Origin: a virus
IMG/VR virus record: IMGVR_UViG_3300027541_000218
Location: 1 to 64,000 of that record
Strand: one strand, 5' to 3'
DNA: 64,000 nt
Each line of letters starts with the position of its first letter. The stretch's first letter is position 1. The notes beneath the pieces are model-generated. The model was not told the DNA's origin and ran no database searches. It was given only the letters and a program-made list of their open reading frames with translations. This document shows, one piece after another, positions 1 through 14,382 of this stretch. Position numbers and translations under genes: made by a program.

Positions 1-2
1 AG

Positions 3-128
3 AGTTTCCACGATTGGCAATACAAGGAAATGGTAGAGGAAATTGAAAACGCTATCCGTATTCTGAAAATGACAGATGAGGAAGTAGTTTCAACTTCAAC
101 TTACAACGCTATCGCTAGATACTTGTAA
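3..128 (+). CDS. 3' end of hypothetical protein (truncated by window edge)
   Basis: Open frame ...MVEEIENAIRILKMTDEEVVSTSTYNAIARYL* ending at TAA 126-128. Confidence 0.6.
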   Translation, partial: SFHDWQYKEMVEEIENAIRILKMTDEEVVSTSTYNAIARYL

Positions 129-133
129 ATCAC

Positions 134-160
134 TTTCCTGAGCATGAAATAAAACTGCTC
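134..160 (+). repeat. H-type pseudoknot repeat, copy 1
   Basis: TTTC-CTGAGCA-T-GAAA-TAAAAC-TGCTC; P1 TTTC/GAAA, P2 GAGCA/TGCTC. Confidence 0.85.
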
Positions 161-192
161 ACCAAACCACCACAAACAGAAAGGTAAAACAA

Positions 193-360
193 ATGACATT
201 AGGCGGATACACTTATCAAGTAGGAGATTTATTCACTACTTCTAAGACAGGCGTTACAGGCAGAATTGAAAAGTTTATTCCTGTTCGTCAAAATGTAACT
301 CGTGTTATGTTGCGCTTGGCAAATAATCAAACAAGATTTGCTATGGTAAAAACATACTAA
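193..360 (+). CDS. small hypothetical protein (55 aa)
   Basis: AGAAAGG RBS at 178-184; MTLGGYTYQVGDLFTTSKTGVTGRIEK...; absent from the ORF track (<60 aa). Confidence 0.75.
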   Translation: MTLGGYTYQVGDLFTTSKTGVTGRIEKFIPVRQNVTRVMLRLANNQTRFAMVKTY

Positions 361-367
361 CAGAATT

Positions 368-441
368 GCTCTCTGTGTTCACGGCAGACTGCGATCTAAA
401 ACTAGATTAGATTGAACTTTCTGCGAAAGTCCCTTGAGAGC
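368..441 (+). ncRNA. candidate multi-branch structured RNA before pseudoknot copy 2
   Basis: GCTCTC/GAGAGC closing stem enclosing the hairpins GATCTA/TAGATT and ACTTTC/GAAAGT. Confidence 0.35.
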
Positions 442-444
442 CTT

Positions 445-471
445 CATCCTGAGCATGATGTAAAACTGCTC
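445..471 (+). repeat. H-type pseudoknot repeat, copy 2
   Basis: CATC-CTGAGCA-T-GATG-TAAAAC-TGCTC. Confidence 0.85.
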
Positions 472-488
472 TAAAACCCCCCGACCCG

Positions 489-504
489 TGTGACTAAGAT
501 CACA
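489..504. promoter_or_regulatory. CRP/GlxR-type operator
   Basis: TGTGA-CTAAGA-TCACA, perfect TGTGA-N6-TCACA. Confidence 0.7.
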
Positions 505-536
505 TCTCATTATGTGAGATTAATTAAGAAATAGAT

Positions 537-565
537 TTGTATTTCCCACATTTTTTTGCTATGCT
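537..565 (+). promoter_or_regulatory. sigma70/SigA-type promoter
   Basis: TTGTAT-17 bp-TATGCT with extended -10 TG. Confidence 0.6.
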
Positions 566-595
566 TAGTTATACCAACAAGAAAGGAAAGCCCTA

Positions 596-859
596 ATGAT
601 ATCAACCGCATTAGCAATACAAGAAGCAACAATGGAAGCCGTTCATGACGAGGAAACTATGAATATGGCTGCCCATATTTTTCATTCACGAAATGAAGTT
701 TCAGAGGATGAATTTATCAGAATGATGTTTATGTATTCTGCTCATCTATCAGCGATTACTGCTACTCTAGTTACTCATGCCTGCTTGACTGAAAGCCAAC
801 TAAATGATATGCTAGAAACAATAAAAGAAATGGAAACAATGGGAAAGGACATTGAATAA
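596..859 (+). CDS. hypothetical protein
   Basis: 87-aa ORF with AGAAAGG RBS at 580-586. Confidence 0.8.
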   Translation: MISTALAIQEATMEAVHDEETMNMAAHIFHSRNEVSEDEFIRMMFMYSAHLSAITATLVTHACLTESQLNDMLETIKEMETMGKDIE

Positions 860-1314
860 TGGAAGAGACAACAATAGAGGTCCCCTCACACTATAACGCT
901 AATCAATTAGTAACCTATAAGGTTATCAAGGATGGCGTAGCCTCATTCCCAACTACTAAGGTTAATGACCTTGAGTGGGAACTAGAGCAATACCGTCGCA
1001 CTCAGGACAGAGTTAATGAACTCCAGTCTACAATCAATAAAATTATCGATAACATGTCTGAAGAGTATTGGTTTAATCCTAATACAGAAAAAGAAACAAT
1101 ACTCGAAGACCTTTGCGAGATTTTAAAATTCAACCCAGTTAAAACTGTAGAATTCTCTGCAGTAATTAATGTTAATGGTGCAATCGAAATTCCTCTAAAC
1201 GAAGCAGAAGACTTTGATTTAGAATCATTCTTGTCAGATACAATTAGCGTTGATTCTTACGGCGGTAATGTTGATATTCATGATTGGAATATTGATAATG
1301 CATATGAAAACTAG
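859..1314 (+). CDS. hypothetical acidic protein
   Basis: 151-aa ORF, TAATG coupling, GGAAAGG RBS. Confidence 0.8.
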   Translation: MEETTIEVPSHYNANQLVTYKVIKDGVASFPTTKVNDLEWELEQYRRTQDRVNELQSTINKIIDNMSEEYWFNPNTEKETILEDLCEILKFNPVKTVEFSAVINVNGAIEIPLNEAEDFDLESFLSDTISVDSYGGNVDIHDWNIDNAYEN

Positions 1315-1338
1315 TTTCTGATAGGGGGCTATCCGAAA

Positions 1339-1368
1339 AGGACCTGAGTACGTCCTAATAAACTGCTC
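1339..1368 (+). repeat. H-type pseudoknot repeat, copy 3
   Basis: AGGAC-CTGAGTA-C-GTCCT-AATAAAC-TGCTC (U-G wobble in P2). Confidence 0.85.
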
Positions 1369-1406
1369 AATTTTTATTTGAGATCCCCCGCAAATGGGTC
1401 GGGGGG

Positions 1407-1438
1407 CGTGATATAAATCACATGTGAGATTAAGCACA
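1407..1438. promoter_or_regulatory. tandem CRP/GlxR-type operators
   Basis: CGTGA-TATAAA-TCACA directly followed by TGTGA-GATTAA-GCACA. Confidence 0.65.
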
Positions 1439-1470
1439 TGTCCGATTTTTCCCATTTTAATTAAGATGAT

Positions 1471-1499
1471 TTGACTTTATTTCCCCGTAATGCTAAACT
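1471..1499 (+). promoter_or_regulatory. SigA-type promoter
   Basis: TTGACT-17 bp-TAAACT with extended -10 TG. Confidence 0.65.
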
Positions 1500-1528
1500 A
1501 GATTGTAATCTATTGAAAGGAAAAAAAT

Positions 1529-2551
1529 ATGGCTCATGAATTAGAAACCCAAAATGGTGTTGCTAGTTTCGCTTCTTTCCGTGAACCTGCTTGGCATGGT
1601 CTAGGCACAGTATTCACAGAAGAAAAAAATACAGCAGAAATGTTGGCTGCTGCTAATCTAAATAACTGGAATGTTCGTCTTGAAGATGTAAATATTCCTA
1701 CTCACTTATCATCAGATAAGAACTACCAATATGTAGTGCGTACCAATCCTACAGATAACACTCAGACAGATATTCTTGGTGTTGTAGGTGAGCGTTATCA
1801 TGTTCTACAGAATGAAGATTTATTTTCATTTGGTGACAATATCCTAGATGGTGGTGGTCGTTGGGAAACTGCTGGCGCTATTCGTGGTGGTCGTGTAGTA
1901 TTTGGCTCTCTTGCTCTTGAGCGTGAGACAGTGCTAGACCCTAATGGTGTTGCAGATAAGGTAAAGACTTATCTTCTTATCAACACATCACACGATGGCT
2001 CTATTGCTATTCAAGCGTCAATCACTCCCGTTCGTGTTGTGTGCGCTAACACTCTCAACCTTGCTCTTGGTGGCGTAGGTCGTAAGCGTAATAAAGGTAT
2101 CAAGCAATCTTTCAAGATTCGCCATACTCAGACAGCACAAGGTAAAGTCGCTATTGCTCGTGAGGCTCTTGGTCTTGCCAATACCTACATGGATGAATTC
2201 GACAAGATGGCACACGCAATGATTCAGAAAGAAATCACAGCCGTTGATTTTAATAAAATCATTCTTGCTGCTTATCCAAAGCCTGAGAAAGATACTAAGG
2301 GCGCAATCAAGAAGTGGGAAAATAAAGTTGATACAATCAACGATATTTACACTGGCGAATTCAATGGCATGATTGCTAACACTGCTTGGGGTGCGTTCAA
2401 TGCTCTAACTGAGCGCCTTGACTGGTATCGTTCTGCTCGTGGTGGCAATAACGAGAGTATTCTCGCTGCTGCTAGTGGATTTGACCCATCTATCACAGCA
2501 GAAAAAAATCGTTTGCTAACTATTGTTCGCAACACATTAGAATTAGTGTAA
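1529..2551 (+). CDS. DUF932 / TIGR03299-type phage-plasmid protein
   Basis: MAHELE...REPAWHGLG, YHVLQNEDLF, ETAGAIRGG, NTSHDGS, TPVRVVCANTL, IRHT, TAWGAFNALTE motifs. Confidence 0.85.
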   Translation: MAHELETQNGVASFASFREPAWHGLGTVFTEEKNTAEMLAAANLNNWNVRLEDVNIPTHLSSDKNYQYVVRTNPTDNTQTDILGVVGERYHVLQNEDLFSFGDNILDGGGRWETAGAIRGGRVVFGSLALERETVLDPNGVADKVKTYLLINTSHDGSIAIQASITPVRVVCANTLNLALGGVGRKRNKGIKQSFKIRHTQTAQGKVAIAREALGLANTYMDEFDKMAHAMIQKEITAVDFNKIILAAYPKPEKDTKGAIKKWENKVDTINDIYTGEFNGMIANTAWGAFNALTERLDWYRSARGGNNESILAAASGFDPSITAEKNRLLTIVRNTLELV

Positions 2552-2560
2552 ACTAATTCA

Positions 2561-2587
2561 ACACCTGAGCAAGTGTAAAAACTGCTC
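2561..2587 (+). repeat. H-type pseudoknot repeat, copy 4
   Basis: ACAC-CTGAGCA-A-GTGT-AAAAAC-TGCTC; preceded by hairpin GAATTAGT-GTAA-ACTAATTC, followed by a T-tract. Confidence 0.85.
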
Positions 2588-2716
2588 ACTATTTTTTTTG
2601 CAGATCATAAATTGAAATTGTAATCTTAATATGTGAGACGGGTCGGGGGTGTCCGTTTTGTACCTTTTATTAAGAATGATAGTATTATTTTTTAAAATTT
2701 TTTTATTAAGAGGGAC

Positions 2717-2745
2717 TTGATTTTTTCCCGAAATTTTGGTATTCT
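2717..2745 (+). promoter_or_regulatory. SigA-type promoter
   Basis: TTGATT-17 bp-TATTCT with extended -10 TG. Confidence 0.55.
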
Positions 2746-2772
2746 ATATTTACACCAAGAAAGGAAATAAAA

Positions 2773-2994
2773 ATGAAAGTTGAATTATATGAAATGGAAT
2801 ATTCTGTTTCTCCAGGAGGCAAGGATTGCTGGGAAGCAACAGTATATACAGGCTTAGGACATTCTTCTAACTATAGTGAATATAGATCTGCTGGAGAGGC
2901 TTTAGACCATTTGATTTCTGTATACCCTGGCGTAGAACTAGAAGTTGACGTAACTACCCTTGAAGCGTATAATTTACAACAGGAAAGGGTATAA
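2773..2994 (+). CDS. hypothetical protein
   Basis: 73 aa, AGAAAGG RBS at 2758-2764. Confidence 0.75.
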   Translation: MKVELYEMEYSVSPGGKDCWEATVYTGLGHSSNYSEYRSAGEALDHLISVYPGVELEVDVTTLEAYNLQQERV

Positions 2995-2996
2995 AA

Positions 2997-3134
2997 ATGT
3001 TAGTAGACGACTTAATTATTAAAGTATATGAGGATAATTATTCCCATATGGACTTTATGGAAAATATGAATGGTGGAGACTGTGATTGTGCTTTACATTC
3101 TTTCTTTAAAGTAATAGAGGTTTATACATGCTAG
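2997..3134 (+). CDS. small hypothetical protein (45 aa)
   Basis: GGAAAGGG RBS; MLVDDLIIKVYEDNYSHMDF...CDCALH; hand-translated. Confidence 0.55.
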   Translation: MLVDDLIIKVYEDNYSHMDFMENMNGGDCDCALHSFFKVIEVYTC

Positions 3135-3277
3135 GTTATGAAAAATCAGATTTAGACATGATGATTGCTAATGTAAACATTGCTTCTAAGCAATTAGGCA
3201 ATTCAGGTATTGCTAGGGGACTAGATGAAGTATCTTTATTTCTTCAAGGTCTATGGGCAGAGGGGTACTTTGACTAA
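3128..3277 (+). CDS. small hypothetical protein (49 aa)
   Basis: MLGYEKSDLDMM...FLQGLWAEGYFD*; overlaps neighbours in operon fashion. Confidence 0.55.
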   Translation: MLGYEKSDLDMMIANVNIASKQLGNSGIARGLDEVSLFLQGLWAEGYFD

Positions 3278-3402
3278 TGGATAAAGTTTTATACTGGTCA
3301 GATCTAGCAGAGTTAACTCATCAAACACAAGTAGATTTATTTGACTTCTGTGCTTGTGAAGAGCAAGAGTTATTTCCATATGAGGATTGTCCAAGGGTGT
3401 GA
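3277..3402 (+). CDS. small Cys-containing hypothetical protein (41 aa)
   Basis: TAATG coupling; MDKVLYWSDLAELTHQTQVDLFDFCACEEQ... Confidence 0.5.
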   Translation: MDKVLYWSDLAELTHQTQVDLFDFCACEEQELFPYEDCPRV

Positions 3403-3413
3403 CGAAAGTCACA
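3398..3413. promoter_or_regulatory. CRP/GlxR-type operator upstream of a TTGACT -35 (3424)
   Basis: TGTGA-CGAAAG-TCACA, perfect consensus. Confidence 0.7.
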
Positions 3414-3561
3414 TTACGAGGGCTTGACTTATACCCCTGATTTTGGGAAAATAAGACTATGGACATTTACTTAGAGGAACTCACCAAAACTGTAGCCTAT
3501 CACGATTCGTATTGTGATTGCCGTGATTGCGCTATGTATTATTTTCTAACAGAAAGGGAAA

Positions 3562-3750
3562 ATGAAAATGCCAATGTATGACCTAAAGGTAGTAGTAGAG
3601 TATTTCTATGAAGTAGAAGCAGAGACTGAGGAACAAGCAGAGGAACTTGGTTGGCACTATGAAGACCACGCTTACTCAGGCGAAGTTTATTCTATTGAGG
3701 TATGGGAAAAAGAAGAAGAGGAAGTAGAACTAGATGAGGAGGTTAAGTAA
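3562..3750 (+). CDS. hypothetical acidic protein
   Basis: 62 aa; AGAAAGGGA RBS at 3551-3559. Confidence 0.7.
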   Translation: MKMPMYDLKVVVEYFYEVEAETEEQAEELGWHYEDHAYSGEVYSIEVWEKEEEEVELDEEVK

Positions 3751-4481
3751 TGCCTAACTGGTGCTATAACTATCTTGACATATCAGGTGATGAAGCCTTG
3801 GTTGCAGATGTAAAACGACAACTCAACAAACCATTTGTCATGAGCCATGATTCATGGAATATGAATACAAAACAAATGGAAATATCAGAAACAAGTTATT
3901 CAAACCCTGTCTTTGCATTTCATAATATATATAATCATAGACAAGACGGTATCTCAGATGAGGATTACATAAAGCAACCTGACCATACCCTGCCTTTAGA
4001 AGAATCTCTTATGTTCAAGGGCAACCATTGGTACGACTGGAATGTTCGCAACTGGGGAACCAAATGGGATGTTGCAGTTCGTGACGGTGATGAGTATCCT
4101 GAGACTGAGTTATATGAAGAGACTGATAGTTCTGTGGGGTATAAGTTTAATACTGCTTGGTCTCCACCTGTTGAGGCTATAACTAAACTATCAGAACAGT
4201 ATCCTAGCCTAGAGATGAATCTATCTTATGAGGAAGAAACTGGTTGGGGTGGTTCTGTCAACTTCAATAACGGTATTGCTACTGAAGAAGAATCATATGA
4301 AAACAAATGTAGAGATTGTGATTCACTAAATAGTTTAGAATACTGTGAAAATGATTGTGGTGAGATTTGTTCAGAGTGTAATTATATGGGGGAAGCAGAC
4401 CTTGACTGTGTTGCGGAATGTGATACCCACAAGGTATACTTGGACAATGTGCCAGAATACAGAAAGGTAAGCAATGATTGA
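3750..4481 (+). CDS. YubB/DUF1281-like ferredoxin-fold protein with Cys-rich tail
   Basis: MPNWCYN start, WYDWNVRNWGTKWD, FNTAWSPP, YEEETGWGG motifs. Confidence 0.7.
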   Translation: MPNWCYNYLDISGDEALVADVKRQLNKPFVMSHDSWNMNTKQMEISETSYSNPVFAFHNIYNHRQDGISDEDYIKQPDHTLPLEESLMFKGNHWYDWNVRNWGTKWDVAVRDGDEYPETELYEETDSSVGYKFNTAWSPPVEAITKLSEQYPSLEMNLSYEEETGWGGSVNFNNGIATEEESYENKCRDCDSLNSLEYCENDCGEICSECNYMGEADLDCVAECDTHKVYLDNVPEYRKVSND

Positions 4482-4671
4482 CAAGTTAGTAGAATATATC
4501 AAGTTACATGCTCTTAGCATGGAGCAAGATATTGAAAACATTCATACTAAATATGAAGCAGGTGGTATGTATTCAAATGAGGATACGTACATGGAAGAGT
4601 ATTTGGCAGGTGCCATTGCTGCCTGCTATCATATTCTATCTACAATTGACGAGTTCAGAAAGGAACAGTAG
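4474..4671 (+). CDS. hypothetical protein
   Basis: 65 aa, AGAAAGG RBS at 4461. Confidence 0.7.
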   Translation: MIDKLVEYIKLHALSMEQDIENIHTKYEAGGMYSNEDTYMEEYLAGAIAACYHILSTIDEFRKEQ

Positions 4672-4946
4672 TGGAAATATCACCAACAACATTAGAACCA
4701 TACCTGCAAAAACAGGTAGACCATGATATCAGCGGTATCGATATCATGCACGGTCACCTAAAAGTTCTCATGCTGCAGGCAGAGCAAGAACTAATTAATG
4801 CACAGGCTTTGGAGGATGAAACTGAAGAGGCTATGGATTCTATGGAACGTAAATATTGGGAGGGTATGTGTGACGCATATGCTCATCTATATAGTTTGAC
4901 ATATGATTTATCATTCGCAATAGCAGCAAGAAAGGAAGAAGAATAA
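4671..4946 (+). CDS. hypothetical protein
   Basis: 91 aa, GTG start, AGAAAGG RBS at 4657. Confidence 0.7.
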   Translation: MEISPTTLEPYLQKQVDHDISGIDIMHGHLKVLMLQAEQELINAQALEDETEEAMDSMERKYWEGMCDAYAHLYSLTYDLSFAIAARKEEE

Positions 4947-5296
4947 TGGGAGCACGTTGTACATTTGTATTTAAAACTAGTGAGGACCATGCCGTGGCAC
5001 TATACAGCCACTGGGGTGAGGACTCGTTGTATCCAGACCTGGCAGCGGCATTGAATCATGCAAGACCTAGGTGGACGGACCCTTCATATGGTACCCGTAT
5101 GGCAATTAGTTATTTAATTCAGGATAACATCATGGACGAGACTGGCTTTGGTATCTATGGGTGTGACCCTACGGACCAGGCATTCATGGACACACCAATC
5201 ACAATTGATTTTACAGATAATACTGTAGGCAATGGTGAAGACTGGCATTCATTTGATGAGTTTGTTAATTATCATGGAATGGCTATCTCAAAATAA
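4946..5296 (+). CDS. hypothetical phage protein (YxHW motif)
   Basis: 116 aa, AGAAAGG RBS at 4929; MGARC...LYSHWG. Confidence 0.75.
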   Translation: MGARCTFVFKTSEDHAVALYSHWGEDSLYPDLAAALNHARPRWTDPSYGTRMAISYLIQDNIMDETGFGIYGCDPTDQAFMDTPITIDFTDNTVGNGEDWHSFDEFVNYHGMAISK

Positions 5297-5340
5297 ATTT
5301 ATCTGAGAAGACGGAGAATGGGTCACTCCGCACACAGGGT

Positions 5341-5383
5341 GAGGCGCAGGCTGTGGTGGGTCTTGCGCCTCCCCACCTTTTTT
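5341..5383 (+). terminator. intrinsic terminator
   Basis: GAGGCGCAGG...TCTTGCGCCTC stem with a downstream T-run. Confidence 0.6.
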
Positions 5384-5397
5384 GGTAGAATGGAGGT

Positions 5398-5637
5398 ATG
5401 CGTATATTGAGAGGTCTTAGGCTAGGAATATCAAAAGAAGAAAAGGTTGCTATTGCTATTGGCAGACTTGTATCTGACTTTGGTCTTGACCTTGAGGCAG
5501 TTGGAAAATATCTAGCAACAACACAGCCATATGTAGTTTATGCTCGTGTGCTGGAGGTATTAGAAGCAACTGAATACAACAAGACTGTATCAGAGTATAG
5601 GCAGATAGGACAATACTATGGCGACCAACTTCGCTAA
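5398..5637 (+). CDS. hypothetical protein (probably leaderless)
   Basis: 79 aa; TAGAAT 6 nt before the ATG. Confidence 0.7.
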   Translation: MRILRGLRLGISKEEKVAIAIGRLVSDFGLDLEAVGKYLATTQPYVVYARVLEVLEATEYNKTVSEYRQIGQYYGDQLR

Positions 5638-5890
5638 CAAAGCGGGTATATTATCAGATCTCTGGATTAACTTTAGAGATGAAGAACAGTTCAGTGACTT
5701 TATAGAATATAATGACATTGGACTCCCGTTAGCATATTTTGTTCATACTGAATTAGTTAAACCTGCTGATCAAGCAATAATGTATATAGAAGAAACATTT
5801 AATTTGTTATGTGCTGCATTAGAGTTAGATCTAGAAGGAGACTATGAATCATTGAATGAAATGTTTGATAAATCTAATAATGTAGAGTAG
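5618..5890 (+). CDS. hypothetical protein
   Basis: 90 aa, overlaps the upstream ORF. Confidence 0.7.
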   Translation: MATNFANKAGILSDLWINFRDEEQFSDFIEYNDIGLPLAYFVHTELVKPADQAIMYIEETFNLLCAALELDLEGDYESLNEMFDKSNNVE

Positions 5891-6650
5891 GGTTGACAGC
5901 CTGCAGCAGATGTGCTATGCTGTGGGCTGCGCCCCGACCCTATCTTTCAAATTCCAAACACTTTATTACGAAGATAGTATTTTTTTCCCAGAATTTTTAT
6001 TACGATCAAACATAAAAAATCCCAGCATTTTATCAAACAAATTTTTATTTGTCAAATCAGGGTTATATCCCTTATACTGTATATAGGTATGTTTGTCAAG
6101 GATCTTTTATATACCGCCGCCGAATGGCGGCAGCCCCGAAGGGGCGTGAGATTTCCCAAAAAAACATTAAGAACCCTTTTCAAAAAATCCCTGAAAGTTT
6201 GGCGGGGTACAAAAAGATATACCCAAATCCCTCTATATAAAACATTACGAAAACACTTTATTTTTCCCTGATTTTCAAACATTTTAAAACATTTTTATAT
6301 GGTTTTATAACATTTTGTTATGGTTTTTAAACATTTTTAAACCACATTTTGTCTATAATTTGGGACAAATCATTTGACAAATATGGTTTGATATGGTATT
6401 ATGCAGGCTATTTGGCTATTTGACATATAAGGTTTTATATGATATGGGGTTTGGGAACTGGGTTGGTTTGAACTGTCGCATTACGATCCATCTTCTAAAG
6501 ATGTTCCATTCCCCACTTTCCTCCCTTTTCCTCCACCTATAGTATATGAAAATATAATCAGTAATATATTTTTGTGGATAAACCTGTGGATAACTATGAG
6601 ATTTTGTGGAAAACGGGGTATACAAATCAGGACATTTAGGCTATACTTGT
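5891..6650. other. long AT-rich non-coding region (candidate origin or control region)
   Basis: No credible ORF; ATTACGA and TCAAACA repeats, twin GC hairpins at 6116-6145, DnaA boxes at 6573-6613. Confidence 0.5.
6573..6613 (-). promoter_or_regulatory. three co-oriented DnaA boxes
   Basis: TGTGGATAA (6573), TGTGGATAA (6585), TGTGGAAAA (6605), i.e. TTWTCCACA on the - strand. Confidence 0.6.
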
Positions 6651-6653
6651 CAT

Positions 6654-7019
6654 ATGCAATTCATTCCTGAGCATCAAACCAATAACCTAATCTTGAGGTT
6701 TATAGCCAATCAGATATTTCACCGTATATCCCATATGTTCTTATCTAGGTCATTAAGGATATATTATATATATGAGAATGAGTATGATGAGGATAACTCC
6801 TTTGTACCGCCGAAGTTTGACCATCTTAGAATTAGAACCTATAACTGGCTATACAATGTTTTAGATAAGCCATATAGTAGATGGGGAACACATTACGATA
6901 TATCTTTTGATGATGAAGACCAAGAATTAATGGATAGGCTTGGCTCTGATTATGACGAGAATGGTATCCCATATTGGGAGAAGACAGGAACAGTGGATCC
7001 AGATTATGATTTACGATAA
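6654..7019 (+). CDS. hypothetical protein (probably leaderless)
   Basis: TATACT 6 nt before ATG 6654, in frame with the 137-aa track ORF. Confidence 0.6.
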   Translation: MQFIPEHQTNNLILRFIANQIFHRISHMFLSRSLRIYYIYENEYDEDNSFVPPKFDHLRIRTYNWLYNVLDKPYSRWGTHYDISFDDEDQELMDRLGSDYDENGIPYWEKTGTVDPDYDLR

Positions 7020-7068
7020 AATATCTACATGCCTTGAATGGCTAAGTATAAATGACATTGAATGGGAT

Positions 7069-7098
7069 TTGACATACTAGCCAACACTTTGCTATAAT
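7069..7098 (+). promoter_or_regulatory. consensus SigA promoter for the sRNA
   Basis: TTGACA-18 bp-TATAAT with extended -10 TG; no ORF directly downstream. Confidence 0.75.
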
Positions 7099-7103
7099 TA
7101 TAT

Positions 7104-7238
7104 CTAGAAGGCATGAACGGCTGATGGTTTACCGTGTGGTCGTACCTCTTCTAGCATCCGCTCCCTTTCTGGCGGATAAGTCGCCTCTCCCTTTCTGGAG
7201 GCGCACTCCTGAGCATGAGTCTAAACTGCTCCCTTTCT
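7104..7238 (+). ncRNA. candidate anti-Shine-Dalgarno sRNA with three CCCUUUCU motifs and a 3' pseudoknot
   Basis: 5' stem CTAGAAG/CTTCTAG; hairpins ATCCGCT-CCCTTTCT-GGCGGAT and CGCCTCT-CCCTTTCT-GGAGGCG; pseudoknot 7205-7231; third CCCTTTCT at 7231-7238. Confidence 0.75.
7205..7231 (+). repeat. H-type pseudoknot repeat, copy 5
   Basis: ACTC-CTGAGCA-T-GAGT-CTAAAC-TGCTC. Confidence 0.85.
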
Positions 7239-7251
7239 GTATAATATAGAT

Positions 7252-7344
7252 ATGAGTCTATACAGAGAAAAGAATGAGTTTATTCCCATTATGAGGGATA
7301 CAGATGATCATATAGATGATTATGAAGCAATAGGCATTGATTGA
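7252..7344 (+). CDS. 30-aa leaderless micro-ORF
   Basis: TATAAT (7240-7245) 6 nt before the ATG; MSLYREKNEFIPIMRDTDDHIDDYEAIGID*. Confidence 0.4.
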   Translation: MSLYREKNEFIPIMRDTDDHIDDYEAIGID

Positions 7345-7350
7345 TATACC

Positions 7351-7388
7351 CCAACCATATTGCCCTGCAAAGGGGCAAATGTTGGTTG
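7351..7388. terminator. hairpin between convergent genes
   Basis: CAACC...TTGCCC-TGCAAAG-GGGCAA...GGTTG. Confidence 0.4.
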
Positions 7389-7395
7389 TGGGGTT

Positions 7396-8040
7396 CTATT
7401 TTGCGCCGAACTTTAAACGCCGCTTTTCCCATATTTCTAGATCTTGCGGATGATCAAAGTCTTCAGTCCAGTCGTTGATTTCAACATAGTTTGATTTATT
7501 TGTAAAGTGATGCTGTACCCGTAGGCTTTCAAGGTTCCTTATCTTTTTATACAACAGGTATGTTCCAGGACCTTTTTTGTTTTCTTCTATTACCTGCTGT
7601 AGGACATTACGAACGAACTCTTTTTGTCCCCCGTCAAAACTCAATGCAAATATTTCTTTATATTTTTTGCCAGTAATTTTTGATGCTTTGGGGCGTAGAA
7701 AAAACTGTATTGGATCTATATTATTTGCTATTGTCTCTACCGCTTGATCAGAAAACCAAACATCACCAAATGCAATAATTGTTCTATCTTCCCCCCACAG
7801 ATGGACTGATGAGTACAGTTTGGCTGCATCATTCCAGTTGCCTTCAAGAGGATATTCAGTGGCAGCATTTATACTTATATTGTTTTTAGATATTACGACT
7901 ATATCATTGCTAAACTTATTAAACTGATTAATGGTTCTGTTTAGCAGTGGTTCGCCATCTATTATTGCAAGATGTTTTGGGGTATTACGAAAGTTATTCC
8001 AACGTGTACCTTTTCCTGCTGCTGGAATGATTACTCTCAT
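7396..8040 (-). CDS. NTP-transferase (sugar/choline-phosphate nucleotidyltransferase family)
   Basis: IIPAAGKGTRW...PKHL, FGDVWF, EDFDHPQD motifs. Confidence 0.8.
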   Translation of the reverse strand: MRVIIPAAGKGTRWNNFRNTPKHLAIIDGEPLLNRTINQFNKFSNDIVVISKNNISINAATEYPLEGNWNDAAKLYSSVHLWGEDRTIIAFGDVWFSDQAVETIANNIDPIQFFLRPKASKITGKKYKEIFALSFDGGQKEFVRNVLQQVIEENKKGPGTYLLYKKIRNLESLRVQHHFTNKSNYVEINDWTEDFDHPQDLEIWEKRRLKFGAK

Positions 8041-13857: not shown

Positions 13858-13933
13858 TGGTCTGTAGTTCAGTTGGCAGAACAAGGCACTGTTAATGCCT
13901 GGGTCGTAGGTTCGAGTCCTACCAGACCAGCCA
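13858..13933 (+). tRNA. tRNA-Asn(GTT)
   Basis: TGGTCTG/CAGACCA acceptor, AGGCA-CTGTTAA-TGCCT anticodon arm, GTTCGAGT T-loop, encoded CCA. Confidence 0.95.
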
Positions 13934-13934
13934 A

Positions 13935-14008
13935 GCGAATATTGCATAGTGGTAGTGCGTAACCTTGCCAAGGTTAATGTGCGAGTTCGATTCTCGCTAT
14001 TCGCTCCA
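13935..14008 (+). tRNA. tRNA-Gly(GCC)
   Basis: GCGAATA/TATTCGC acceptor, TTGCCAA loop, encoded CCA. Confidence 0.93.
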
Positions 14009-14009
14009 A

Positions 14010-14083
14010 GGTCCGTTAGTTCAGTTGGTTAGAACGCCACCCTGTCACGGTGGAGGTCGTGAGTTCAAGTCTCATACGGATCG
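14010..14083 (+). tRNA. tRNA-Asp(GTC)
   Basis: GGTCCGT/ACGGATC acceptor, CCACC-CTGTCAC-GGTGG; CCA not encoded. Confidence 0.92.
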
Positions 14084-14087
14084 CTAA

Positions 14088-14159
14088 GTCTCCATCGTCT
14101 AGTGGTTAGGACAACACCCTTTCACGGTGTAAACGAGAGTTCAATTCTCTCTGGAGATA
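14088..14159 (+). tRNA. tRNA-Glu(TTC)
   Basis: GTCTCCA/TGGAGAT acceptor, ACACC-CTTTCAC-GGTGT. Confidence 0.92.
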
Positions 14160-14165
14160 CTCGAA

Positions 14166-14305
14166 ATAACATCTGAACAATGTTATGGAGATCGTTATTA
14201 CTGAAACTGAGTTCGTGGGCGCATCATACGAAGGTGTTCAGACCGAAGGAGATTGCTCTGCTACCCCACTAGGTAATAACAGCCAGCGGAGACTTTGTGG
14301 CTGGC
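14166..14305 (+). ncRNA. unidentified pseudoknotted RNA inside the tRNA cluster
   Basis: ATAACAT/ATGTTAT hairpin whose loop CTGAACA complements TGTTCAG at 14235; GTTATTAC/GTAATAAC; TTCGTG/TACGAA; GCCAGC/GCTGGC. Confidence 0.6.
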
Positions 14306-14309
14306 ATTT

Positions 14310-14381
14310 GCCTCCTTAACTCAGGGGTAGAGTACCCGCCTTGTAAGCGGGTTGTCGTAGGTTCAAATCCTACAGGAGGCT
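14310..14381 (+). tRNA. tRNA-Thr(TGT)
   Basis: GCCTCCT/AGGAGGC acceptor, CCCGC-CTTGTAA-GCGGG, GTTCAAAT T-loop. Confidence 0.93.
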
Positions 14382-14382
14382 C

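Follow-up and report, generated by a model that had tools for sequence, protein, structure and literature searches.

A widespread, uncatalogued RNA pseudoknot at the gene ends of bacteriophages

The coremin motif of plant and fungal RNA viruses (exonuclease-resistant RNA class xrRNA_C) stalls Xrn1 as well as scanning ribosomes and can drive frameshifting; it is built from a hairpin of 3-5 base pairs (bp) closed by C-G, whose loop reads YGAD or YGNNAD, followed by a conserved spacer of roughly 10 nucleotides (nt) and an obligatory second hairpin (PMC6546385, PMC10520033, PMC10321173). In the Watson-Crick coremin (xrRNA_WCC), the loop letters GAG pair with CUC, which is followed by an A, and in Sanxia picorna-like virus 5 such an element begins 8 nt past the last open reading frame (ORF) (PMC10321173). 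Other small knots that need to be considered are the -1 frameshift knots of luteoviruses, such as those of beet western yellows virus (BWYV) and potato leafroll virus (PLRV), and the preQ1-I family (RF00522). In bacteria, message-stabilising structures are known from the repetitive extragenic palindromic (REP) elements of E. coli operons and from the RNase III-processed hairpins between the early genes of phage T7. Here we describe an RNA pseudoknot of 27-30 nt that recurs five times in a 64,000-nt stretch of viral DNA (positions 1 to 64,000 of IMG/VR record IMGVR_UViG_3300027541_000218, hereafter the window). The family to which it belongs is widespread among phages and uncatalogued, lies at gene ends, and may serve to cap segments of phage messages.

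Fold and covariation of the knot

The knot is made up of stem 1 (S1), loop 1 (L1), stem 2 (S2), a single junction nucleotide and loop 3 (L3). S1 is 3-7 bp long, free in sequence except for a closing C-G pair, which is present in 70 of 71 aligned copies; L1 is C-U; S2 has 5 bp with a purine-rich 5' strand; and L3 is A-rich and 4-9 nt long, consisting of a linker of 0-5 nt of free sequence and a final AAAC. A preliminary description of the window had reported five copies, and both their coordinates and their letters hold. The pattern CTGAGYA-N(5-14)-AACTGCTC matches the window five times, always on the + strand, with 0.00 matches expected from 100 dinucleotide-preserving shuffles, and the whole viral record of 73,823 bp contains five forward and no reverse matches. 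A covariance model run with filters off gives the five copies 32.6-46.6 bits; the next match, at 12.9 bits, is noise. The copies are:

Copy 1: 134..160, + strand; S1 134-137/146-149; S2 140-144/156-160; 46.1 bits.
Copy 2: 445..471, + strand; S1 445-448/457-460; S2 451-455/467-471; 44.8 bits.
Copy 3: 1339..1368, + strand; S1 (5 bp) 1339-1343/1352-1356; S2 1346-1350/1364-1368, with one U-G pair; 32.6 bits.
Copy 4: 2561..2587, + strand; S1 2561-2564/2573-2576; S2 2567-2571/2583-2587; 46.6 bits.
Copy 5: 7205..7231, + strand; S1 7205-7208/7217-7220; S2 7211-7215/7227-7231; 43.7 bits.

As had been claimed, all five lie between ORFs on the + strand, the sequence of S1 is different in each copy with pairing kept in all, and S2 is constant save for the U-G pair of copy 3. 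To follow the family beyond the window, viral contigs were scanned with a single exact pattern: CCTGAGYA, then any letter, a G, 4-8 further letters and AAACTGCTC. At least 120 contigs match; the loci fetched from the viral matches listed hold 152 copies, and contigs with several copies keep them on one strand. Large samples drawn by such an exact loop and tail pattern overstate sequence conservation.

For S1, the viral sample was selected by the loop and tail letters only. All 151 of the flanked viral copies listed have an S1 of at least three consecutive bp (the fixed C-G counted), compared with about 14% expected by chance; the stem is 3 bp long in 29 copies, 4 in 84, 5 in 28, 6 in 8 and 7 in 2. 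In the seed alignment (A1), S1 pairs by construction. For S2, the exact pattern freezes the sequence, and deviant copies were therefore sought within the same loci. A scan that tolerated up to three mismatches and did not require pairing returned 30 variants co-oriented with the exact copy and 2 in the opposite orientation, mostly with compensated or G-U changes. When only the hairpin, the L1 letters and AAAC were fixed and S2 was ignored, a perfect S2 was present in 213 of 222 same-strand candidates vs. 2 of 14 opposite-strand ones, both of these being real copies. A dozen different S2 sequences occur, in which the 5' strand always reads purine-purine-purine-pyrimidine-purine, so that the changes in S2 are transitions only. 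In a model-made alignment of 72 copies, with S2 left out of the model's structure, both sides have changed at four of the five pairs, and S2 is paired in 97.6% of cells vs. 26-43% when the partner is slid by 1-3 columns. Some loci in alignment A2 were taken because variants had turned up there in a scan requiring S2 pairing; the scan without that requirement agrees.

Nested folding of the window copies (-4.7 to -8.3 kcal/mol) recovers S2 in four of them and S1 in one, and the two helices, found singly in this way, can coexist only as a knot. Since both helices covary, the fold is an H-type RNA pseudoknot, and compensatory changes in both helices across hundreds of copies bear out the + strand RNA pseudoknot of the preliminary description. 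A sixth S2 pair, between the U of L1 and an A at position +1 downstream of the knot, is possible, and the U of L1 is nearly invariant.

Several lineages carry variants of the knot. The Synechococcus phage S-CRM01 (locus L247), a cyanophage, has copies in which two S2 pairs are exchanged together; one is at 1498-1531 and another lies within the same stretch of 3 kb. These copies are embedded in a tRNA array, and one of them ends 9 nt ahead of tRNA-Met. A subclass with an unaltered loop has the tail AAAAGGCUC in place of AAACUGCUC, the two substitutions always occurring together, which makes the innermost S2 pair an A opposite a G. Its loci are L041, L097, L068, L011, L080, L133 and L246, the last being Streptomyces phage ClubPenguin (1501-1529). 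The Vibrio lineage, for example Vibrio phage D456 (L251, 597-632), has C-C in place of C-U as L1. In Erwinia phage Berlingot (L255, 693-734), loop and tail are perfect and S1 has only 2 bp; this copy may have decayed.

Spread of the family and its position at gene ends

The same exact pattern, applied to prokaryote contigs with one genome per species, matches at least 119 contigs. The labels among the matches listed include Saccharibacteria, Aminicenantes, Anaerolineae, Clostridia, Lactobacillaceae, Calothrix, Bacteroidota and a few Proteobacteria, and 102 of the 121 prokaryote-contig copies listed have a stem of at least 3 bp. Matches in Pseudomonas and Thermoplasmatales were rejected as chance hits, being stemless and within ORFs; with the latter gone, an archaeal reach of the family would rest on one Methanobrevibacter bin and is not established. 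Short BLAST queries located copies in cultured and named phages. True copies are present in Roseobacter phage SIO1, following the ribonucleotide reductase gene; in Lentibacter and Celeribacter phages; in the crAss-like phages cr7_1 and cr124_1; in Lactobacillus phages phig1e, KC5a, phi jlb1, Lj771 and phiAQ113; in cyanophages S-CRM01, S-H35 and S-EIVl; and in Streptomyces phage ClubPenguin, Moraxella phage Mcat4 and one Vibrio phage lineage. Carriers thus range over crAss-like phages, T4-like cyanophages, SIO1-like podophages, Lactobacillus siphophages and Streptomyces phages.

The family had not been recognised when first noticed, and this stands. With Rfam 15 at gathering scores, the window yields five tRNAs only and no match at the copies, and at E-values up to 10 no match overlaps any copy in positions 1-8000. 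Full-text literature searches, for the motif letters and for descriptions of phage pseudoknots or xrRNAs, found no paper describing the knot. The family is widespread among phages and uncatalogued, and it merits an entry in the RNA catalogues whatever its function.

The knot follows the strand of the genes. Of the viral copies listed, 135 of 153 are intergenic, a same-strand ORF lies upstream in 116 of 125 and downstream in 107 of 123, and G-U pairs are confined to the reading of the element along the gene strand. Copies elsewhere in the family are thus co-oriented with genes, in support of the earlier claim of a + strand RNA. Measured from the nearest upstream ORF of at least 60 codons, S1 begins 4-10 nt past the stop codon in about 45% of the viral copies listed, with a mode of 6 nt. 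The counts for spacings of 2 to 10 nt are 1, 1, 7, 18, 23, 17, 8, 11 and 9, and the range of 0-3 nt is almost empty. With a stop codon in the ribosomal A site, a spacer of 4-7 nt puts a knot at about +11 to +14 from the first letter of the P site, which is the mouth of the message channel. This geometry places the knot as near to the gene as is possible without its being unwound by the terminating ribosome. Spacing to the next start codon is looser (median 97 nt).

On the downstream side, a co-oriented tRNA gene begins 4-13 nt past the knot in 17 copies, representing four tRNA identities; no tRNA ends within 24 nt upstream of a knot among the copies examined. The window itself has five tRNA genes at 13858-14382 (Asn, Gly, Asp, Glu, Thr, the last two about 150 nt apart), and this array is not preceded by a knot, unlike those of related phages. 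A U-run begins within 8 nt downstream in 27% of copies vs. 10% of control positions, and T has a frequency of 0.36-0.44 at +3 to +10 over a background of 0.27. A consensus scan of positions 1-8000 calls none of the five window copies a terminator. Among the letters behind the knot, +1 is A in 70% of copies, C or U predominates at +2 (C in 47%) and +3 (C in 44%), and G hardly occurs between +1 and +8; on the upstream side the flank is rich in A. Convergent junctions hold 12 copies and divergent ones 5, which are small numbers.

Neighbouring genes are diverse, 194 of 358 being singletons. A DUF932 gene is the upstream neighbour in 17 cases and a scaffold gene the downstream neighbour in 5, and given the many singletons we reject a tie to one gene family despite the 17 DUF932 neighbours. 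The link to early genes in the preliminary description is too narrow for the family, which elsewhere also adjoins late, metabolic and tRNA genes. At three prophage-like loci of Lactobacillaceae (L146, L184, L218), a conserved word, CCAAATCCATGCGGGAGC, stands between the knot and a capsid scaffold gene downstream, which suggests that CCAAATCCATGCGGGAGC is a second conserved leader element ahead of late structural genes.

The phage of the window is siphovirus-like and encodes a terminase, a DNA polymerase resembling family A and a tape-measure protein whose gene exceeds 2,200 codons; no close relatives were found among deposited phage genomes. Copy 1 begins 5 nt past the stop codon of the ORF at 3..128, and the 32 nt from its end to the ATG at 193 contain no promoter-like cassette. 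Copy 2 lies 84 nt past the ORF at 193..360, upstream both of a GC-rich box (477-487) and of the promoter cassette that belongs to the gene at 596. Copy 3 lies 24 nt past the ORF at 859..1314, and a U-run (1371-1379) begins 2 nt downstream of it. Copy 4 begins 9 nt past the stop codon of a DUF932 gene (1529..2551), and a run of eight U (2592-2599) begins 4 nt downstream. Copy 5 is within a presumed non-coding RNA from a promoter at 7069-7098, 1 nt past a hairpin at 7182-7203, and the gene that follows it (7396..8040) is on the - strand, which makes the junction convergent. Copy 5 had been placed at the 3' end of a small RNA; this is not supported, and the copy lies inside the presumed RNA, about 100 nt past the promoter. 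It had also been stated that four copies follow another stem-loop. This is correct for the window, where hairpins lie at 415-427, 1320-1333, 2540-2559 and 7182-7203, and does not extend to the family, in which an upstream hairpin precedes 41% of copies vs. 32% of random positions.

Relation to known structures and candidate functions

How does the phage knot compare with the small knots already known? With coremin it shares a short first hairpin closed by C-G, a loop that starts with U-G-A-G (YGAD), an A-rich linker with AAAC, and the size of a luteoviral knot. With xrRNA_WCC it shares the GAG/CUC pairing, which makes up the outer three pairs of the phage S2, the A that so often occupies +1 and, as in Sanxia picorna-like virus 5, a start shortly past an ORF; in keeping with both classes, S2 tolerates purine-for-purine exchanges that preserve pairing. 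The differences are as clear. The phage loop has 8 nt, not 4 or 6, and only its letters 2-5 fit YGAD; S2 is 5 bp long rather than 3; L1 consists of C-U where coremin has one letter, C/U or G; and the spacer of about 10 nt is not kept, AAACU alone being shared. The second hairpin, which coremin and xrRNA_WCC need for Xrn1 resistance, is not enriched behind the phage knot: one of at least 4 bp and at most 4 nt away follows 45% of copies vs. 49% of random positions, and one of at least 5 bp and at most 6 nt away follows 32% vs. 30%. In addition, the carriers are DNA phages, whose hosts have no Xrn1. Loop size, spacer and second hairpin lead us to reject membership of the coremin class. The phage knot resembles coremin in build and, by analogy, plausibly in working too.

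Luteovirus frameshift knots have the same topology, with an S1 of 4-5 bp, an L1 of 1-2 nt, an A-rich L3, a length of 26-30 nt and, as here, one junction nucleotide. The conserved loop letters of the phage knot would form groove triples like those of the BWYV structure and those described for luteovirus knots (PMC10321173). The phage knot differs in having neither a slippery site nor an open -1 frame, and in following a stop codon or residing in non-coding RNA. The preQ1-I family shares the H-type fold, the very small size and the A-rich 3' tail; however, RF00522 gives no match at E-values up to 10, a junction nucleotide replaces the loop that forms the ligand pocket, and the phage knot is found in many copies at gene ends rather than in the 5' leaders of queuosine genes.

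Of the functions put forward in the preliminary description, the genomic context favours a block to 3' exonucleases; a non-canonical terminator or a processing signal would be compatible with it as well. We propose tentatively, with somewhat less than even confidence, that the knot works as a roadblock or end-cap which needs no protein and shields message segments, chiefly against 3'-to-5' exonucleases. The invariant loop letters would make groove contacts of the luteovirus type with both helices, resulting in an unusually robust and compact fold that would act in cis as a mechanical block. No phage protein would be needed; diverse neighbours and unrelated carriers argue against a common phage gene or protein partner. 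Its position just beyond the footprint of the terminating ribosome would keep the knot folded. The enzymes stopped would most likely be PNPase, RNase II and RNase R, found in almost every bacterium, and 5'-to-3' enzymes might be stopped too. The message segment upstream of the knot would gain a defined, stable 3' end by whichever route that end arises, be it termination at a U-run, an RNase P cut at an adjacent tRNA or trimming after an endonuclease cut. The knot is in fact often directly followed by a maker of 3' ends, either a U-run or the RNase P site of a tRNA.

In the window, the knots would cap four early message segments, with copy 1 dividing a two-gene message. Copies 2-4 lie past a gene and ahead of the next promoter cassette, so that transcripts from those promoters lack the upstream knot and bear a knot at their far end only, an arrangement that agrees with the proposal. 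Copy 5 would stabilise the promoter-driven RNA with its anti-Shine-Dalgarno loops (see below).

Precedents come from two sides. The coremin and Watson-Crick coremin knots, which are of similar build, stall Xrn1 and ribosomes (PMC6546385, PMC10321173, PMC10520033), and the blocks posed by flavivirus xrRNAs are mechanical and stop bacterial RNase J1 too (PMC5760640). With regard to the proposed job, a stop for 3' exonucleases between co-transcribed genes that confers segment-specific stability, the phage knot resembles the REP elements and T7 hairpins, and like these it can occur in several copies along an early operon. Those structures are plain hairpins specific to a species or phage, whereas the phage knot is conserved in sequence across phyla.

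Several points weigh against the end-cap proposal. The RNA data consist of assembled metatranscriptome contigs, which cannot show ends. The tight spacing to the stop codon may reflect only genome compaction together with ribosome clearance. Known xrRNAs block 5'-to-3' enzymes, and resistance to 3'-to-5' enzymes is an assumption here; moreover, a stable luteoviral knot alone does not stop Xrn1 (PMC10321173). The loop letters are very highly conserved across phyla, as would also be expected if a universal host factor recognised them. Finally, copy 1 and the copies ahead of tRNA genes show that transcription often runs past the knot, so that an end at these sites would have to come from processing.

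RNase J is present in the copy-bearing Alistipes, Lacticaseibacillus and Calothrix genomes, and could be considered as the target. To our knowledge, gamma-proteobacteria lack RNase J. Since Vibrio and Moraxella phages, whose hosts would thus be without the enzyme, carry true copies, RNase J cannot be the only target, and we reject it in that role.

A bolder version of the end-cap proposal, possible in our view but doubtful, is that the knot is a nuclease- and helicase-proof, protein-independent RNA of DNA phages and the counterpart, in fold and perhaps in descent, of the coremin and Watson-Crick coremin xrRNAs of eukaryotic RNA viruses. A single minimal knot would in that case halt RNA-degrading machines in different domains of life and fix message ends for the phages of most bacterial phyla. 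If an end-cap role is correct, the knot would be among the most widespread structured RNA elements of phages and the first class of exonuclease-resistant knot described for bacterial viruses. It would provide a sequence signature that marks the ends of message segments in uncultured phage genomes, would explain unequal message stability of neighbouring phage genes without host-specific signals, and would offer a portable part of 27 nt for RNA stabilisation in many bacteria. As the knot is short, easily synthesised and found in cultured phage-host pairs, its function can be tested directly.

The U-runs raise the question of whether the knot instead acts on transcription. In the RNA exit channel, it could replace the hairpin of a terminator and, together with a U-tract, pause or partly terminate the polymerase; conversely, it could modify the polymerase in the manner of put RNA. 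Like an intrinsic terminator, the knot is a gene-end structure with an A-rich upstream flank and a T-rich downstream flank (+3 to +10), and the excess of U-runs over controls includes window copies 3 and 4 as well as the Moraxella Mcat4 and crAss-like cr7_1 copies, which directly abut U-runs. RNA polymerase is also a universal partner, which would agree with the cross-phylum conservation. However, 73% of copies have no U-run, and the final helix is a 5-bp S2 with three G-C pairs, short for a terminator stem and unlike a G+C-rich hairpin. Many knots are within a few nt of the next gene or tRNA. Copy 1 is only 32 nt ahead of a gene without a promoter, and some of the 4-13-nt gaps between knots and tRNA genes even contain U-runs; efficient termination there would silence the downstream gene. 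We therefore regard a transcription element, in either form, as unlikely.

Near-invariance of the loop letters across phyla could also reflect recognition or processing by a universal host factor. For example, stacked S1 and S2 followed by A-C-C could act as a miniature tRNA-like acceptor for RNase P, RNase Z or the CCA-adding enzyme; alternatively, the knot could be the site of another conserved RNA-binding protein. ACC is indeed the commonest trinucleotide after the knot, ACCA follows 14 of 149 copies, and knots adjoin tRNA genes. Yet ACC is present in only 17% of copies, as single-position frequencies predict, and the 5' and 3' ends of an H-type knot should leave at opposite ends of the stacked helices, unlike those of a tRNA acceptor stem. 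We consider this explanation distinctly improbable.

Stop-codon spacing bears on a third possibility, namely that the knot touches a ribosome with the stop codon in its A site and alters termination, recycling or re-initiation, thereby insulating cistrons. The spacing of 4-10 nt (mode 6) equals that between slippery sites and frameshift knots, and coremin knots do stall ribosomes (PMC10520033, PMC10321173). Over half of the copies, on the other hand, are not beside a stop codon, and copy 5 is in non-coding RNA, making a ribosome-directed role very unlikely in our judgement. Frameshifting and readthrough as such are rejected and recoding is excluded: an in-frame slippery heptamer is present in one of 74 stop-adjacent copies, and the -1 frame past the stop is open for a median of 6.5 codons in these copies.

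Conservation at this level is also typical of catalytic or ligand-binding cores, and several copies between co-oriented phage genes recall hammerhead arrays, with those of the window phage clustered in its early region. One could therefore envisage that the knot cleaves itself as a ribozyme, binds a small molecule as an aptamer or serves as an anti-defence decoy RNA, for instance by mimicking a type III antitoxin. Against this, the helices and groove contacts of a plain H-type knot would account for all conserved letters, a single junction nucleotide would leave no pocket, no Rfam ribozyme or riboswitch matches, and a location at gene ends differs from the sites where riboswitches act. Copies are single and dispersed, not in tandem. 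They are separated by genes, in contrast to the tandem repeats of type III antitoxins (ToxI, CptI, TenpI); they are not beside toxin genes, and no toxin family is among the ten largest neighbour families, in a tally that included no search aimed at toxin genes. Taken together, we would give this group of explanations only a slight chance. A DNA-level site, whether a protein operator or a single-strand hairpin signal, can practically be discounted, as nothing specific speaks for it beyond short, intergenic copies near promoter cassettes, and the strict strand bias with the genes, the G-U pairs (A-C on the other strand) in more than 50 copies and a covariation that preserves pairing rather than sequence speak against it.

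Other features of the early region

Riverine metatranscriptome runs contain 66-85% of the words of the early region. The assembled contigs end, for example, at 467, 1334 and 1382, positions that cannot be read as RNA ends and that may reflect strain variation. In two runs the contigs stop at 7118 and resume at 7268/7269, omitting the hairpins of the presumed small RNA and copy 5; a third run bridges this stretch. The gap (7119-7267) is seen in assembled contigs only, from which ends, strands and levels cannot be read, and it supports no conclusion.

The promoter at 7069-7098 is a perfect sigma-70 promoter (TTGACA, 18 nt, TATAAT with TG) with no ORF downstream. Two hairpins past it, at 7156-7177 and 7182-7203, bear CCCUUUCU in their loops, and a third CCCUUUCU lies at 7231-7238, directly past copy 5. 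CCCUUUCU is complementary to the AGAAAGG ribosome-binding sites ahead of the ATGs at 193, 596 and 2773, and from this complementarity the region 7069-7240 may encode a small RNA that masks those sites.

In both orientations and within otherwise AT-rich spacers, a GC-rich box with the sequence GGGTCGGGG (or the complement of it) recurs at 477-487, 1396-1406, 2640-2649 and 5932-5940. Three of these boxes lie directly past a knot and upstream of the next promoter cassette.

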